From positions 177-64,176 of the forward strand of contig JAITMS010000017.1 of NCBI GenBank assembly GCA_031277255.1: 64,000 bases of DNA, in the 5' to 3' direction. Both the position numbers and the translations under genes were made by a program. Under the pieces are notes generated by a model. The model did not search any database. It was not told the DNA's origin and saw only the letters and a program-made list of their open reading frames with translations. The stretch comes from Azonexus sp. (GTDB lineage: Bacteria; Pseudomonadota; Gammaproteobacteria; Burkholderiales; Rhodocyclaceae). This document shows, piece after piece, positions 7,121 to 63,934 of this stretch (position 1 is the first letter of the stretch; the number at the start of each line of letters is the position of its first letter).

Positions 7121-7714
7121 ATGAAACTTACGCCGCGTCAGCAGGAAATTCTGGATTTCATTAAAAGTTCGCTGGAAACGCTGGGCGCGCCGCCGACGCG
7201 GGTGGAGATTGCCAGCGCCTTCGGTTTTGCTTCGCCCAATGCGGCGGAGGATCATCTGAGGGCGCTGGCGAAAAAGGGGGCTATCGTTCTTGAACCTGGC
7301 TCGGCGCGCGGCATCCGCCTTGTCGAGCAGCTTGGTTTGCCGCTCATCGGCAGCGTTGCCGCCGGTTCGCCGATTCTTGCCGTTGAAAACGTGCAGGGGC
7401 GTTATGCGCTCGATGCCGGGCTGTTCAGTCCGCGCGCCGATTTTTTGCTCAAGGTGCGCGGGCTGTCGATGATCGACGCCGGTATTCTTGATGGCGATCT
7501 GCTCGCCGTGCACAAAACCAGCCAGGGGCGGGATGGGCAGATTGTCGTCGCCCGGCTGGATGATGACGTGACCGTCAAGCGGCTGGAGATTCGCGCCGGA
7601 CACATCCGCCTGCTGGCTGAAAACCCCGATTTCGCGCCGATTGTCGTCAATCCGGGCGAAGTCGAGTTCGCCATCGAGGGCATTGCCGTCGGCCTTATCC
7701 GTGGCGCTACATAG
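7121..7714 (+). CDS. lexA: LexA repressor
   Basis: [14 protein letters not shown]..., winged-helix N-domain, AG cleavage site region (VAAGSP), S24 peptidase C-domain. GGAG RBS at 7111-7114. The ORF-track start at 7106 is a TTG. Confidence 0.95.
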
Positions 7715-7862
7715 AGGACAGAAGACGGAGGACAGAAGACAGAGGGGTATTCAGTGAGCAGCCATCAGAAAATTTTCGGCGCGAAGCGCCGCAAATCAGC
7801 AGACCACAGACTACCTCTCTGTCTTCTGTCTTCTGTCCTCCGTCTTCTGCCCTCCGTCTTCC
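7714..7862. repeat. heptamer-armed hairpin element, copy 1
   Basis: Left arm 7714-7746 (GAG GACAGAA GACGGAG GACAGAA GACAGAG GG). Right arm 7816-7862 is the complement (CTCTGTC TTCTGTC...). The 69-nt core contains CGGCGCGAAGCGCCG. Confidence 0.8.
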
Positions 7863-7996
7863 GGGTCGTTGAAGGGCAGGTTGGCGGCTTCGTCGAAATC
7901 CTTGCGCCGTTTGCTGCTGTAGGCCCAGATGGCGATGACCAGAAAGCAGATGAGGCCGGCGACGGTGACGAGGGAGCGCATATCGTTGATGTCCAT
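7811..7996 (-). CDS. CcoQ/FixQ-like small membrane protein (cbb3 oxidase subunit 3 family), orphan
   Basis: 61 aa. MDINDMRSLVTVAGLICFLVIAIWAY resembles CcoQ/FixQ N-termini. No ccoNOP nearby. The last 16 or so codons lie in the repeat arm. Confidence 0.55.
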   Translation of the reverse strand: MDINDMRSLVTVAGLICFLVIAIWAYSSKRRKDFDEAANLPFNDPEDGGQKTEDRRQKTER

Positions 7997-11321: not shown

Positions 11322-13175
11322 ATGTCCGCTCGTCCCATCCGCAATATCGCCATCATCGCCCACGTCGATCATGGCAAAACCACGCTGGTCGACCAACTGC
11401 TCCGTCAATCCGGCACCTTTGCCGCCCACCAGCAGGTCGATGAGCGCGTCATGGATTCCGGCGATCTGGAACGGGAGCGCGGCATTACCATTCTGGCCAA
11501 AAACACGGCCATTGATTATCAGGGCGTCCACATCAATATCGTCGATACGCCGGGCCACGCCGATTTCGGCGGCGAGGTCGAGCGCGTGCTGGGCATGGTC
11601 GATGGCGTCGTGCTCCTGGTCGACGCCGTTGAAGGGCCGATGCCGCAGACGCGCTTCGTGACCAAAAAGGCGCTGGCCCAGGGTTTGCGCCCGATCGTGC
11701 TGGTCAACAAGGTCGACCGCGACGGCGGCGACCCGGACAACGCCGTCAATCTCACCTTCGACCTTTTCGACAAACTGGGCGCGACCGACGAACAGCTTGA
11801 TTTTCCGATTGTTTACGCCTCCGGCCTTAACGGCTGGGCGGCGCTGTCGCTCGATGCGCCGCGCGTCGACATGAAACCCCTGTTCGACATGATTCTGTCG
11901 CACGTGCCCGCGCCCGACGCCGATGTTGACGCGCCCCTGCAATTCCAGATTTCGGCGCTCGATTACTCCTCCTACGTCGGCCGCATCGGCGTTGGCCGGA
12001 TCAAGCGCGGCAGGGTCAAAACCGGGCAGAACGTGCTCATCCTGTTCGGCACCGAGGAAGAAGCCATCGAGCACGAACGGACGCCGATCAAAGCCAGAAT
12101 CGGCCAGGTTTTCGGTTACCAGGGCCTGAACAAGATCGAACTGGACGAAGGCTGCGCCGGTGACATCGTGCAGATTACCGGCATTGAAGACCTCGTTCTC
12201 GGCTGCACCGTGACCGACCCGGAACAGCCGGAAACCCTGCCCCTCCTCAAAATCGACGAACCGACCCTGGCCATGCAGTTCATGGTCAACACCAGCCCGC
12301 TGGCTGGCACCGAAGGCAAGTTCGTCACCAGCCGCCAGTTGCGCGACCGCCTGCACAAAGAACTCCTGACCAACATGGCGCTGCGCGTGCACGACACGCC
12401 GAATGGCGATATTTTCGATGTCGCGGGCCGCGGCGAACTGCATCTCGGCATCCTCCTCGAAAACATGCGCCGCGAAGGCTACGAACTGGCCGTTGGCCGT
12501 CCGCGCGTGGTCAAAAAGACGATCGGCGGCGTCGACTGCGAACCTTACGAAATGCTCACCGTCGACGTCGAAGAAGACCATCAGGGCGGCGTCATGGAAG
12601 CCCTTGGGCTACGCCGGGGCGAAATGCTCGACATGATCCCGGATGGCCGCGGCCGCGTGCGCATCGAATACCGCATTCCGGCGCGCGGCCTGATCGGCTT
12701 TCAGGGCGAATTTATGAATCTGACCCGCGGCACCGGCCTCATCAGCCACGTCTTTGACGAATACGCGCCGGTCAGAGACGGCGGCGTTGCCGAACGCCGC
12801 AACGGCGTGCTGATTTCGCAAGACAACGGCGAAGCCGTGGCCTATGCGCTGTGGAAACTGCAAGACCGGGGCCGGATGTTCGTCAACCCCGGCGAAAAGC
12901 TCTACGAAGGCATGATTATCGGCATCCACAGCCGCGACAACGATCTCGTCGTCAACCCGATCAAAGGCAAACAACTGACCAATGTCCGCGCCTCCGGCAC
13001 CGACGAAGCGGTGCGCCTGGTGCCGCCAATCCAGTTGAGCCTCGAAGCCGCCATCGAATTCATCGCCGACGACGAACTGGTCGAACTGACGCCCAAATCC
13101 ATCCGCCTGAGAAAACGCCATTTAACCGAAATCGAACGCAAGCGAGCGAGCAGAGGACAGAGGACTGAGGACTGA
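11322..13175 (+). CDS. typA: translational GTPase TypA/BipA
   Basis: 617 aa. [36 protein letters not shown]-motifs and BipA-specific C-terminal domain. The last 8 codons lie in the repeat arm. Confidence 0.95.
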
Positions 13176-13287
13176 GGACGGTAAGCGACGTAGGCTGGGT
13201 TAGCGCAGCGTAACCCAGCATCGTTCAGCCCAAGCTGGGATTACACTTCGTTCCATCCCAGCCTACCTTCCTGTCCTCCGTCCTCCC
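13151..13287. repeat. heptamer-armed hairpin element, copy 2
   Basis: Left arm CAGAG GACAGAG GACTGAG GACTGAG GACGG. Right arm TTCCTGTCCTCCGTCCTCCC. The core carries nested GTAGGCTGGG...CCCAGCCTAC and TGGGTTAGCGCAGCGTAACCCA hairpins. Lies between convergent typA and moaA. Confidence 0.75.
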
Positions 13288-13291
13288 AACC

Positions 13292-54890: not shown

Positions 54891-57800
54891 CTATGCCGCC
54901 TGAGTCAATTCCCGAATCATATCTTTTATCGCCGCCACTTTGGCTTGCAGAGTGGGCGAGTGGCGCAGGAGGGAGATTTTTTCCGGCCCGGCGAGTTTGT
55001 AGTTACGGTTTTTTTGGATCAGATGGATGATCCGGGCTGGCTCGATCGGTGGGTTTTGGGCAAATTCGGGGCTGAACTGGAGGGTGATCTGGTCGTTACC
55101 GGCGTCGAGTTTGGCGATTTGTAGCGGTTTGATGAGTAGCCGCAGGCGGTGCGTCGCCAGTAGCGCCTCGGTTTGCGGCGGCAGGGGGCCGAAGCGGTCG
55201 ATCAGTTCTTCTTGCAGGGCGTCGATTTCTTCGCGGGTTTCGCCGTTGGCCAGCCGTTTGTAGAGGGTCAGGCGCTCGTGCACGTCGGGGCAGTAGTTGT
55301 CGGGGAGGAGGGCCGGGGCGCGCAGGTTGATTTCGCCGCTGACGCCGATGGGCTGGGTCAAATCCACTGTTTCCAGAACTTTGCCTTGTTTGAGGCAGCC
55401 GACGGCGCGGTTGAGCATGTCGGCGTACAGATTGAAGCCGACTTCCTGCATTTCGCCGGATTGGTTGTCGCCCAGGACTTCGCCCGCGCCGCGAATTTCG
55501 AGGTCGTGCATGGCGAGGTAAAAACCGGCGCCGAGGTCTTCCATCATCTGGATCGCTTCGAGCCGCTGCCTGGCTTGCCGGGTCATCGCTTTTTCGTCAT
55601 TGACCAGAAGATAGGCGTAAGCCTGATGGTGCGAGCGGCCAACGCGGCCGCGCAACTGGTGCAACTGGGCGAGGCCGAATTTTTCGGCGCGGTTGATGAG
55701 AATGGTGTTGGCGTGCGGATTGTCGATGCCGGTTTCGATAATGGTGGTGCATAAGAGCAGATTGGCGCGCTGGCTGGTGAAGTCGCGCATCGCCCGTTCC
55801 AGGTCGCGTTCGGCCATCTGGCCGTGGCCGACGGCGAGACGCGCCTCCGGCAGGAGTTTTTCCAGCTTCTCCCGCATGGCCTCGATGCTGTGCACTTCGT
55901 TGTGCAGGAAATACACCTGGCCGCCGCGTTTCAATTCGCGCAGCGCGGCTTCGCGGATGATGCCGTCGGATAGCCGCGAGACAAAGGTTTTGATCGCCAG
56001 CCGCTTTTGCGGCGCGGTGGCGATGACCGAAAAATCGCGCAAGCCTTCGAGGCTCATCGCCAGTGTGCGCGGAATCGGCGTCGCTGTCAGCGTCAGCACG
56101 TCGACCTCGGCGCGCATGGCTTTGAGGGTTTCTTTCTGGCGCACGCCGAAACGGTGTTCTTCGTCGATGATGACGAGGCCCAGACGCTTGAATCTGACCG
56201 CCTTGCCGATCAGTTTGTGGGTGCCGATGATGATGTCGATCTTGCCCGCGGCGAGATCGTCGAGCGCCTCTCCCGCTTCTTTCGGTGTCCGAAAGCGCGA
56301 CAGTTCGGCGATTTTGACCGGCCATTCGGCAAAGCGGTCGGCGAAAGTCTGGTAATGCTGCTCGCACAACAGCGTCGTCGGACAGAGCACGGCCACCTGC
56401 CTGCCGCCAGCGACGGCGCAGAAAGCGGCGCGCAGCGCCACTTCCGTTTTGCCGAAACCGACATCGCCGCAGACCAGCCGATCCATCGGCTTGCCGGATT
56501 TCATGTCGTCGAGCACGGCGGCAATGGCCGCTGCCTGATCGGCGGTTTCCTCAAAAGCGAAGCCGTCGGCAAAGGTTTCGTAATCCTTGTCGGCAAAGCT
56601 GAAGGCATGGCCTTGGCGGGCGGCGCGGGCGGCGTAGAGGGCGAGCAGTTCGGCGGCGGTGTCGCGGGCCTGTTCCGCCGCCTTGCGTTTGGCTTTTTCC
56701 CACTGGCCGGAACCGAGCGTGTGCAGGGGCGCGGCTTCCGGGTCGGCACCGGAATAACGCGCGATGACGGCGAGTTGCGCCACCGGGACAAAGAGCTTGG
56801 CGTCATTGGCGTAATGGAGTTCGAGAAATTCCTGCTCGCCCAGCCCTAGATCCATCCGCACCAAGCCCTGATAACGGCCAATGCCGTGACTCTCATGGAC
56901 GACCGGATCGCCGATCTTGAGTTCGGTCAGGTCTTTGAGCCAGTTGTCGAAAGCGGCTTTTTTCGCCGCTTCCCGCCGGGCGCGGCGCGGGCTACCAGCG
57001 AACAGTTCAGCTTCGCTGACGAAAGCCAGATTGTCGATGACAAAACCGGCGTGCAACGGCGCAACGCCAAGGGCAAGCTTGTCGCCGCCGTCGACAAAAG
57101 CCTTGAGATCAGGGCAGGCCGCTGGTTTGAGGCCGTGTTCGGCGAGCATCGCCGCCAGCGTCTCACGACGGCCCGCGCTTTCCGCCACCAGCAGAACCCG
57201 CCCCGGCCAGGCGGCGAGAAAGTGTTTGAGGGCGGCCAGCGGATCGTCGGCGCGGCGGTCGATGGCGACGCTGTCGCTCAGAGGACAGAAGACAGAGGAC
57301 AGAGGACTGTGAATTTGCGGCGGCGATCCCCCCATCCCGACCTTCCCCCCGCTTGCGAGGGTGCCTCCCCTCTCCCGCTTGCGGGAGAGGGGCAGGGGTT
57401 GAGGGCTGGCCGCCGGTAACGGGCTGTCTTCCGTCTTCTGTCCTCTGTCTTCTGTTTTCAAAACCAGCCGGGCGTAGGGTTTAGCGGCGCTGAAAAACTC
57501 CTCATCGGTCAGGAACAGTTCTTCCGGCGTCAGCAAGGGCCGCGCCTTGTCGCCTTGCAGGAGCCTGTAGCGCGAACGGGTGTCCATCCAGAAGGCGGCG
57601 ATTGCGGCGGGCGCGTCGCCTTGTGTGACGAACACGGCATTCGGCGGCAGATAGTCGAACAACGTCGCCGTCGCCGAAAAAAACAGGGGCAGGTAATACT
57701 CGATCCCGGCGCTGGCGATACCGCTGGAGACATCCTTGTAAATCCCCGATTTCGCCGGGTCGCCCTCAAAACGCTCGCGGAAAGCCTGCCGGAAGCGCGT

Positions 57801-58490
57801 CCGCCCGGCGTCGTCGAGCGGAAATTCGCGGGCGGGCAGGAGACGGATTTCGTTGACCGGATAGACCGTGCGCTGCGTATCGACATCAAAAGTGCGGATG
57901 CTGTCGATCTCGTCATCAAAGAGATCGAGCCGGTAAGGCAGGGGCGACCCCATCGGAAACAGGTCGATCAACCCGCCGCGAATCGAATACTCGCCCGGCG
58001 ACACCACCTGCGTCACATGGGCGTAACCGGCCAGCGTCACCTGATCGCGGAACTTCCCGGCATCGAGCCGCTGCCCCTTTTGGAAAGCAAAGGTATAAGC
58101 CGCCATGAACTCCGGCGGCGCCAACCGTCCCACCGCTGTCGCCGCCGGCGCCAGCAGAATATCCAGTTCCCCCTGCAAGGCCGCCCACAGCGTCGCCAGC
58201 CGCTCGGAAACCAGATCCTGATGCGGCGAAAAATGGTCGTAAGGCAAAGTCTCCCAATCCGGCAGCAGACGCACGCGCAATTGCGGCGCGAACCAGGGGA
58301 TTTCTTCGAGCAAACGCCGGGCATCCGCCGCCGTCGCCGTCACCACCGCCAGCAAACGCCCGGCGCGGACAGCCGCCGCGGACAGCATCAAGGCATCGCC
58401 GGAGCCGACAGGCGACGGCAGATCAAGACGATGACCGGGACGGGGCAGGGTGGGGAGAAAAGAGCGGGGGAGCAGGGGAGAAGCGGACAC
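54891..58490 (-). CDS. mfd: transcription-repair coupling factor Mfd (carries an in-frame repeat insertion)
   Basis: 1199 aa. UvrB-homology N-terminus, RNAP-interaction domain, GDVGFGKTEVA Walker A, DEEHRFG, TATPIPRT, TRG motif region, C-terminal D7. Confidence 0.95.
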   Translation of the reverse strand: MSASPLLPRSFLPTLPRPGHRLDLPSPVGSGDALMLSAAAVRAGRLLAVVTATAADARRLLEEIPWFAPQLRVRLLPDWETLPYDHFSPHQDLVSERLATLWAALQGELDILLAPAATAVGRLAPPEFMAAYTFAFQKGQRLDAGKFRDQVTLAGYAHVTQVVSPGEYSIRGGLIDLFPMGSPLPYRLDLFDDEIDSIRTFDVDTQRTVYPVNEIRLLPAREFPLDDAGRTRFRQAFRERFEGDPAKSGIYKDVSSGIASAGIEYYLPLFFSATATLFDYLPPNAVFVTQGDAPAAIAAFWMDTRSRYRLLQGDKARPLLTPEELFLTDEEFFSAAKPYARLVLKTEDRGQKTEDSPLPAASPQPLPLSRKRERGGTLASGGKVGMGGSPPQIHSPLSSVFCPLSDSVAIDRRADDPLAALKHFLAAWPGRVLLVAESAGRRETLAAMLAEHGLKPAACPDLKAFVDGGDKLALGVAPLHAGFVIDNLAFVSEAELFAGSPRRARREAAKKAAFDNWLKDLTELKIGDPVVHESHGIGRYQGLVRMDLGLGEQEFLELHYANDAKLFVPVAQLAVIARYSGADPEAAPLHTLGSGQWEKAKRKAAEQARDTAAELLALYAARAARQGHAFSFADKDYETFADGFAFEETADQAAAIAAVLDDMKSGKPMDRLVCGDVGFGKTEVALRAAFCAVAGGRQVAVLCPTTLLCEQHYQTFADRFAEWPVKIAELSRFRTPKEAGEALDDLAAGKIDIIIGTHKLIGKAVRFKRLGLVIIDEEHRFGVRQKETLKAMRAEVDVLTLTATPIPRTLAMSLEGLRDFSVIATAPQKRLAIKTFVSRLSDGIIREAALRELKRGGQVYFLHNEVHSIEAMREKLEKLLPEARLAVGHGQMAERDLERAMRDFTSQRANLLLCTTIIETGIDNPHANTILINRAEKFGLAQLHQLRGRVGRSHHQAYAYLLVNDEKAMTRQARQRLEAIQMMEDLGAGFYLAMHDLEIRGAGEVLGDNQSGEMQEVGFNLYADMLNRAVGCLKQGKVLETVDLTQPIGVSGEINLRAPALLPDNYCPDVHERLTLYKRLANGETREEIDALQEELIDRFGPLPPQTEALLATHRLRLLIKPLQIAKLDAGNDQITLQFSPEFAQNPPIEPARIIHLIQKNRNYKLAGPEKISLLRHSPTLQAKVAAIKDMIRELTQAA
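57279..57456. repeat. heptamer-armed hairpin element, copy 3, inside the mfd coding sequence
   Basis: Left arm 57279-57307 (CAGAG GACAGAA GACAGAG GACAGAG GAC). Right arm 57425-57456 (TGTCTTC CGTCTTC TGTCCTC TGTCTTC TGTT). The core contains the palindrome CCCCTCTCCCGC-TT-GCGGGAGAGGGG (57367-57392). Confidence 0.8.
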
Positions 58491-58567: not shown

Positions 58568-58809
58568 TTGGAGCGGTTTTGATTCAAGTGCTTACGGTTT
58601 TCCCTCGCCCGCTTGCGGGAGAGGGTGGCCGCAGGCCGGGAGAGGGCCAGCGGTGTATCCATTGCTGTCACCGCCAATCGGGACGCCGCCCCTCTCCCCC
58701 TTCGACTTTGCTCAGGACAGGCCCAGCCCCTCTCCCGCGAAGCGGGCGAGGGGAGCAAAGCGCATGGGCGCGGAAATGGATGTCCACACTTGCATCAAAA
58801 CCGCTCCAG
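58568..58809. repeat. about 240-bp MITE-like element with 23-bp terminal inverted repeats
   Basis: Left TIR TTGGAGCGGTTTTGATTCAAGTG (58568-58590). The right TIR (58787-58809) reads CTGGAGCGGTTTTGATGCAAGTG as its reverse complement, 21/23 identical. The interior carries two CCCTC.CCCGC..GCGGG.GAGGG palindromes. Confidence 0.65.
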
Positions 58810-63714: not shown

Positions 63715-63750
63715 GGCGGCGCGGCGTTGGGGGAGGGGAGTGAAGAATAG

Positions 63751-63895
63751 CAGAGGACAGAAGACTGAGGACAGAAGACAGAGAGGTGGTCAGTCGTCAG
63801 TCAGTTACCGGCGCGTAGCGCCGCAAACCAACAGATTACAGACCACTGAATACAAATCTGTCTTCTGTCCTCTGTCTTCTGTCTTCTGTCCTCTG
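63751..63895. repeat. heptamer-armed hairpin element, copy 4
   Basis: Left arm CAGAG GACAGAA GACTGAG GACAGAA GACAGAG AGG. Right arm CTGTCTTCTGTCCTCTGTCTTCTGTCTTCTGTCCTCTGG. The core is the reverse complement of the copy 1 core (GTATTCAGTG..., CGGCGCGTAGCGCCG). Confidence 0.8.
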
Positions 63896-63934
63896 GCATA
63901 CTGCCGCCGTTTTCAGACTACGGACGAGGCGGGG

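Follow-up and report, generated by a model that had tools for sequence, protein, structure and literature searches.

Small palindromic repeats which are read through in frame inside conserved genes are classically represented by the Rickettsia palindromic elements (RPEs). These are dispersed sequences of ~100-150 bp that lie in frame in housekeeping genes, are translated and can be accommodated by the protein fold (Ogata et al., 2000, as summarized in PMC10969869). [quoted passage not shown] A further described system is formed by the heptamer arrays of Xanthomonas, with the unit GGGAATC, and of Nostoc, which comprise few units (four being the commonest number), are dispersed, are mostly found near the ends of open reading frames (ORFs) and can form stem-loops when they occur in pairs (PMC4692102). 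In Xanthomonas 70-75 of ~185 arrays form convergent pairs and 7-11% overlap ORFs; the mechanism is unknown (Rehm et al., 2015, PMC4692102). The element described here lies within mfd, the gene encoding the transcription-repair coupling factor, in a stretch of 64,000 nucleotides from Azonexus sp. (GenBank assembly GCA_031277255.1, contig JAITMS010000017.1, positions 177 to 64,176 of the forward strand), which is called the window in the following. The best explanation of the locus, to which we assign a probability of roughly 0.72, is that a non-coding hairpin repeat replaced the permissive linker between the domains D1b and D3 of Mfd and has been passively tolerated and translated. A preceding inspection of the letters alone, hereafter the sequence-only reading, had already recognized a palindromic element in mfd and held in-frame insertions of this kind to be rarely noted outside Rickettsia, which is overstated in view of the MITE fusions mentioned above.

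The gene and the parts of the element are located as follows (window coordinates; a strand is given where one applies):

54891 to 58490, minus strand: intact mfd (transcription-repair coupling factor) with 1199 codons and a GTG start; based on ORF list and translation, Pfam and alignment.
57279 to 57459: whole hairpin element, 181 nt inside mfd; based on inverted repeats I1-I3, the alignment to empty sites and the RNA fold.
57424 to 57459, minus strand: N-terminal-side arm, which reads (ACAGARG)x5 in mfd sense and encodes KTEDRGQKTED; Tandem Repeats Finder (TRF) period 7, (CTGTCTT), 5.1 copies.
57279 to 57307, minus strand: C-terminal-side arm, which reads (CYTCTGT)x4 in mfd sense and encodes 10 residues; TRF period 7, (CAGAGGA), 4.1 copies.
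57308 to 57423: core of 116 nt, G+C-rich, with nested stems, stop-free in the three mfd-sense frames.
57367 to 57392: perfect 12+12 palindrome CCCCTCTCCCGC-TT-GCGGGAGAGGGG, a hairpin resembling repetitive extragenic palindromic (REP) sequences; inverted repeat I5.
57345 to 57361: second, imperfect hairpin, which has CCCGCTTGCG in common with the perfect palindrome; direct repeat D4 and RNA fold.

Evidence for an exchange of the linker comes from the comparison with related proteins and with alleles that are devoid of the element. For this purpose the window protein and its best 120 homologues (77-84% identity, n=121 in total) were aligned with MAFFT. The usual linker comprises ~13 residues, as in LAL-PARAAATAGQLPN-VAIDRR, as against 63 residues at the same place in the window protein; measured as spacing, 107 of the 121 sequences show 12-20 residues and the window protein 66. 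At the DNA level the homology to the empty alleles L127 and L122 ends with ...CTGGTTTTG and restarts at CGTCGCCATCGAC. Between these borders 189 nt (63 aa; the 181-nt element and 8 flanking bases) stand for the native 39 nt (13 aa), which results in a net gain of 150 nt or 50 aa at the linker. No trace of the native linker, not even of the near-invariant QLPN, was detected in the window by DNA alignment. As judged from these alignments, the linker was replaced, and the 181-nt element was not simply added to it. A gap of 55-60 residues relative to orthologues had been predicted; the segment is indeed absent from them, and none carries a homologous segment of the same length, but the gain is smaller than expected and the linker was exchanged rather than extended. 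The left edge given previously (57279) proved accurate, whereas the right edge lies at 57459 and not at 57456.

The peptide quoted in the sequence-only reading is the true in-frame translation of the element. The insert is rich in Pro, Gly, Ser and charged residues, with TEDSPLPAASPQPLPLSR as an example of a junction peptide. In an exhaustive HMMER search of the insert peptide against 1.84 billion representative proteins the single match was an unrelated repeat protein, and a word-indexed search for homologues of the peptide returned none. The lack of homologues is in better agreement with translation of non-coding DNA than with acquisition of a domain.

The maintenance of the reading frame can be explained by the composition of the repeat. 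The unit ACAGARG contains no T, and neither the unit nor its complement CYTCTGT yields a stop codon in any frame. Since arms and core are both stop-free, the only demand on the length change was divisibility by three, and the exchange of 39 nt for 189 nt keeps the frame exactly at the junctions. The unit of 7 nt itself is not a multiple of three, so that a change by one unit would shift the frame into D3; the tracts in mfd are imperfect and comprise only 4-5 units according to TRF.

Accordingly open is the ORF as a whole, in line with the first inspection: neither a stop codon nor a frameshift occurs along the 1199 codons, and all domains are kept. Seven Pfam domains were assigned to the product, including UvrB_inter (136-223), MFD_D3 (424-496), CarD/TRCF RID, DEAD, Helicase_C and TRCF, and the protein retains its Walker A (GDVGFGKT) and DEEH motifs. 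Structures of the Escherichia coli Mfd align end to end, with residues 4-354 of the query forming the D1a-D2-D1b module and residues 408-1197 matching E. coli Mfd 364-1147. The insert was thus correctly placed between the UvrB-homology module and the next domain, since UvrB_inter ends at 223, the alignment of D1 at ~354 and MFD_D3 begins at 424. In pairwise comparisons with four relatives dN/dS amounts to 0.09-0.13 upstream and 0.12-0.13 downstream of the insert; both halves of mfd are under purifying selection. The source sequence is a metagenome-assembled genome (MAG) with a single contig on record, and the product is identical to the MAG-derived Azonexus sp. entry P0001. This entry is annotated at 1165 aa, with a start 34 codons downstream of the GTG at 58490 (window 58388-58490). 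With its extra residues the N-terminus can be aligned to residue 1 of the E. coli protein as well as to the consensus sequence of the relatives, so the annotated start is probably too short.

A structural model of residues 1-600 was calculated with AlphaFold2 on the basis of 35 homologues and superimposes on E. coli Mfd structures, including 2EYQ, with TM scores of 0.61-0.63. The confidence score pLDDT falls below 50 at residues 350-395, and the segment 345-418 is modeled as coil without secondary structure, while the flanks, a strand (340-344) and a helix (419-427), are confident. This low-confidence coil between confident flanks agrees with a surface loop, for which a structure model had been suggested as a check, and the translated insert is probably a disordered loop at the surface. 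Its position fits the protein fold, as the alignment to E. coli assigns it to the D1b-D3 linker and the model to a coil. As this linker tolerates changes in length, Mfd most likely remains functional with the insert.

The element itself is real and far beyond chance. The arm pattern ACAGARGACAGARGACAG, with up to 3 mismatches allowed, has 23 matches in the window compared to 0.06 expected from shuffles, and all of them are confined to 7.7, 13.2, 57.3 and 63.8 kb. In mfd the arms constitute inverted repeats of 23-24 nt, which are 92-96% complementary and 121-125 nt apart, and two CCCGCTTGCG-type hairpins make up the core. In the sequence-only reading the nested palindrome CCCCTCTCCCGC-TT-GCGGGAGAGGGG had been given exactly. 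For the mfd-sense RNA of 57260-57480 a minimum free energy of -115.7 kcal/mol was computed (z = -5.9 relative to dinucleotide shuffles), and the DNA strand of the element likewise outfolds its shuffles (z = -3.8). The outer RNA stem formed by the arms is predicted to have 19 contiguous bp, or 23-24 bp with 1-2 mismatches, and encloses nested inner stems; the stable hairpin of ~30 bp suggested earlier was therefore too long. Searches of the element for an Rfam family, a promoter or a terminator gave no match.

Further armed copies and one related repeat are present in the window:

7711 to 7861: canonical armed element between lexA (plus strand) and a FixQ ORF (minus strand); inverted repeats I2 and I4.
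13150 to 13290: armed element with the core GTAGGCTGGG...CCCAGCCTAC; the right arm is degenerate, and bipA/typA takes its final codons and its stop from the left arm.
58569 to 58808: inverted-repeat element of its own, immediately upstream of mfd; its 22-nt arms are 95% complementary; inverted repeat I10.
63750 to 63896: canonical armed element between map (minus strand) and a downstream gene (plus strand); inverted repeat I1.

All four armed copies are convergent pairs of heptamer arrays (TRF period 7, 4-6 copies), and only the one in mfd is internal to a gene. The canonical copies at 7.7 and 63.8 kb measure ~150 nt and consist of 44-51-nt arms around a small GC hairpin. Their arms combine the heptamer arrays with a subterminal inverted sequence (GTATTCAGT..TC.GTAATC / GAC.GAC.ACTGA..AC) that also occurs in MAGs of Accumulibacter (L010, L096, L030). 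The copies in mfd and at 13.2 kb have the arrays alone in common with the canonical ones, and the core at 13.2 kb is an inverted doublet headed by GTAG. The assertion of a common architecture thus holds for the arms but not for the cores, as the four copies share their arms around three unrelated cores, with a degenerate right arm at 13.2 kb. A counterpart of the mfd core exists elsewhere: the element at 58569-58808 contains two inverted copies of the CCCTCGCCCGCTTGCGGGAGAGGG hairpin which also forms the mfd core, and the perfect palindrome recurs with one mismatch at 58603-58624, with its doublet partner at 58727. The mfd insert is, by this comparison, a chimera of two repeat families, because it joins the heptamers of the canonical arms with the core hairpin of a different repeat that recurs at 58603.

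The other copies had been regarded as intergenic, which applies only in part, since they reach into adjacent genes. The stop codon TAG of lexA (7712-7714) falls in the outermost arm unit, and the FixQ/CcoQ ORF (7811 to 7996, minus strand) extends past the Pfam profile by ~15 C-terminal residues that the arm encodes. In bipA the arm at 13150-13181 takes the place of the last codons, so that the protein ends with ...ASRGQRTED* compared to ...ASREGA or ...AQRGL in its relatives. A seeding of the repeat by microhomology was considered as well: LKTE in E. coli Mfd versus the arm-encoded LKTED, and RGQKEE in enterobacterial BipA versus RGQRTED, had suggested an origin from native codons or homing. 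This was rejected, because the nearest relatives have LAL-PARAA... in Mfd and the BipA ends named above.

Among the 121 aligned sequences insertions of at least 8 aa occur at a single internal site, the D1b-D3 linker. Expanded linkers were found in P0002, P0003, P0012, P0014, P0021, P0038, P0050 and P0055, and the DNA of L121, L123, L124, L125 and L126 revealed at least four other, unrelated palindromic inserts at this place:

P0002/L121, the closest relative: palindrome CCCCTCTCCCCTCGCGGGAGAGGGG of REP type.
L124: inverted doublet of CCCCTCCCCCCTGGCGGGGGAGG.
L126: palindrome CCCTCCCCTTCAAGGGGAGGG.
L125 and L123: perfect 27-bp hairpin AAAAAACCGGGGACAGACCACGGTTTT.

No armed elements were detected in the mfd loci of L121-L127. 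Copies of the relatives' linker palindromes were not found elsewhere in their 6-9-kb loci. The inserts of L123 (4060-4133) and L125 (4048-4094) have the same 19-nt arm GGGGACAGACCACGGTTTT, and the Mfd of each is ~79-80% identical to the window protein. The identical arm suggests that one hairpin family has inserted twice, independently and not long ago, or else that the hairpin is strongly conserved. The occurrence of several unrelated elements at one linker is most simply read as tolerance of the site, and insertions elsewhere in Mfd would be purged by selection. Alternatively, the elements may be targeted to the D1b-D3 linker.

For an overview of the heptamer arrays beyond the window, 185,579 species genomes (596 Gb) were scanned for an 18-nt arm pattern, which yielded at least 120 loci. 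In 596 Gb an estimated ~70 single 18-nt matches are expected by chance; since single matches can thus be fortuitous, the interpretation was restricted to pairs and to arrays of several units. The following counts are those among the matches listed. Arrays of this kind are frequent among Betaproteobacteria (Accumulibacter, Gallionella, Thiobacillus and related groups), and other phyla contain them as well. An opposite-strand partner at a distance of up to 450 nt is present for 62 of 195 arrays; the length of the arrays in other genomes ranges from 18 to 179 nt, and solo arrays likewise reach 179 nt. In 33 of 35 adjacent pairs from the window and the 120 loci the purine array (ACAGARG)n precedes its complement, and two pairs are reversed. 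This polarity holds whichever strand is read, and a hairpin alone would not require it. The cores of the pairs span 12 to 430 nt and are unrelated in sequence.

Two of these loci deserve a separate description. In the complete rRNA operon of an uncultured betaproteobacterium (L034; 164-341 and 3650-4075) an armed element fills the 23S-5S spacer, and in the 16S-23S spacer an array pair encloses a functional tRNA-Ile, with tRNA-Ala situated between two elements. In a MAG of the Pseudomonadales (L060, 5066-5443) an "ORF" of 125 codons turned out to be a long translated heptamer array, (RTEDRGQ)n, from which it follows that heptamer arrays can create spurious gene calls. As a candidate for an autonomous parent element the fetched loci offered only one widely spaced array pair, also in L060; it was rejected, as the ORF it encloses, a neighbor of the translated array, is without transposase features.

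On the basis of these observations the following course of events is proposed for mfd. The 13-codon linker would have been swapped for a repeat whose ends are inverted ACAGARG arrays and whose core consists of a different repeat of the same genome, the CCCCTCTCCCGC-TT-GCGGGAGAGGGG hairpin. The inserted repeat would now simply be translated, and the product would sit as a loop at a surface linker that tolerates changes in length, neutral or nearly so in its effect. Production and activity of the protein, selective neutrality of the insert and the order in which arms and core came together are inferred here. Several points weigh against this explanation. The linker was replaced and not interrupted, which a simple cut-and-paste insertion fails to explain. 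At the flanks of the four window copies no target-site duplication was found, and the fetched loci contain no transposase with matching ends, so that we infer mobility from dispersal alone. The pairwise dN/dS values cannot single out the branch after the insertion, an RNA stem of 19-24 bp within a coding region could have consequences, and the source is a MAG which is known here from DNA alone.

It is conceivable, though unlikely, that the element was instead built in place, with a REP-type hairpin inserted first and the heptamer arrays added later, either by slippage or hairpin-templated copying or by separate arrival of the arms. The closest relative (P0002/L121) indeed carries in the same linker a REP-type insert of the same hairpin family without heptamer arms, the cores of the armed copies are unrelated and interchangeable, and solo arrays of up to 179 nt exist among the matches listed. 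The tRNA-Ile enclosed in L034 is hard to see as cargo of a transposed unit, and expansion of heptamer simple sequence repeats by slippage is known (PMC4692102). However, the REP hairpin in the window is oriented opposite to that in L121, and the flanks of the native linker are kept in L121 and lost in the window, so the two inserts are probably independent. Moreover, a defined element accounts better than independent local growth for the strict polarity of 33:2 and for a heptamer unit that is the same at four loci. The polarity and the variety of enclosed sequences have also led us to consider a more far-reaching model, in which the heptamer arrays are not the ends of a MITE but a self-contained polar module, installed pairwise around arbitrary DNA by an undescribed mechanism and acting within an ORF as a latent frameshift switch. 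The same arms bracket unrelated cores, including the REP cluster in mfd and the tRNA-Ile in the rRNA operon, and the purine array is nearly always located 5' in the listed pairs. This model appears improbable to us; if it were true, the switch would act on mfd, a factor which influences mutagenesis.

Replacement of the linker by a passively tolerated repeat also has to be compared with a function of the insert and with an error or a defect. A functional insert, be it an RNA stem that controls stability or translation of the mfd mRNA through RNase III or ribosome pausing or a 7-nt slippage switch, is in our estimation decidedly improbable. The very stable RNA fold with its perfect outer stem of 19 bp speaks for it, as does the combination of a 7-nt unit with a stop-free core, by which a change of one unit would lead to a frameshift into D3. 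Stems in the transcripts of rRNA operons are normally processing sites, and the armed elements of L034 are part of such a transcript. The tracts in mfd are short and imperfect, though, the element holds no promoter, terminator or Rfam family, and at least four unrelated palindromes in the linker of the relatives fit tolerance better than a specific function. Population variants and empty alleles of the same species were not found in metagenome scans with a core 23-mer and a degenerate flank pattern; this evidence is weak, because the flank pattern should match L121 (JGI sample 3300042623) and nothing was returned, which reveals the collection as incomplete. Highly improbable, finally, is an artefact or a dead gene, that is, a repeat misassembled into mfd or an inactivated mfd relic that is still open. 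The MAG source with its single contig, the frequency of misassembly at repeats and the fact that Mfd is dispensable in many bacteria would be in accordance with it. It is contradicted by junctions that keep the frame exactly over 1199 open codons, by the retention of catalytic motifs and all domains, by a dN/dS of ~0.1 downstream of the insert and by the independent assemblies of relatives, which show analogous in-frame inserts at the same site.

If a tolerated replacement is accepted, the locus represents a case of selfish or repeat DNA turned into protein outside Rickettsia; the host is a free-living betaproteobacterium, and the protein concerned is a repair factor that has been studied well. 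Within Mfd, the D1b-D3 linker appears to be the sole place that takes up tens of extra residues, with at least five unrelated palindromes within the Rhodocyclales. Such a permissive linker is useful for protein engineering, for instance for the insertion of tags or sensors, and for considerations on the connection between N-terminal clamp and motor. The data further connect the little understood pairs of inverted heptamer microsatellites, on record only for Xanthomonas and Nostoc, with a polar family that has a shared subterminal sequence, whose copies in rRNA operon spacers offer a concrete system for studying the origin of heptamer pairs.

In comparison with the known systems, in-frame fusion of small palindromic elements, with the RPEs as the classic example, and inverted heptamer arrays are both established. 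The mfd element resembles the RPEs in being palindromic, in having copies elsewhere in the genome, in lying in frame in a conserved ORF and in being absent from orthologues. It differs from them by its betaproteobacterial host, by the internal position in a gene of only one of the four window copies, by arms that are tandem heptamer arrays and by armed cores which are not conserved, so that beyond the translation of the arms (QKTEDRG / SSVFCPL) there is no conserved peptide. The likeness is hence one of behavior, and membership in the RPE families is not claimed, as the host is Azonexus and the cores differ between copies. With the arrays of the Xanthomonas type the ACAGARG arrays have the tandem structure, the variable unit number and the close convergent pairs in common. 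Unlike these, ACAGARG is without a run of G and therefore without G-quadruplex potential, its pairs include the canonical subterminal sequence that is common across genera, and PMC4692102 contains no description of a whole pair that is translated in frame within a conserved gene.

As in MITEs, the mfd element is small (181 nt, <300 bp), has terminal inverted repeats and dispersed copies and is compatible with an ORF. In contrast to MITEs, target-site duplications are missing at the four window copies and a parent insertion sequence in the fetched loci, the terminal repeats of the armed elements are microsatellite-like and of variable length, and the cores are interchangeable. REPs are by definition extragenic; they are short imperfect palindromes, occur as inverted doublets and are associated with the RAYT transposase. 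The core hairpin of mfd recalls REPs and REPINs in its recurrence in the intergenic inverted doublet 58603/58727, as does the GTAG-headed doublet at 13.2 kb. The hairpin in mfd is intragenic, however, and heptamer arms are not a feature of REPs; a RAYT gene was not seen, although no search was aimed at one. To these systems the present analysis adds a chimeric, heptamer-armed family with strict polarity that is also present in an rRNA operon, and a D1b-D3 linker of Mfd that has been colonized repeatedly.

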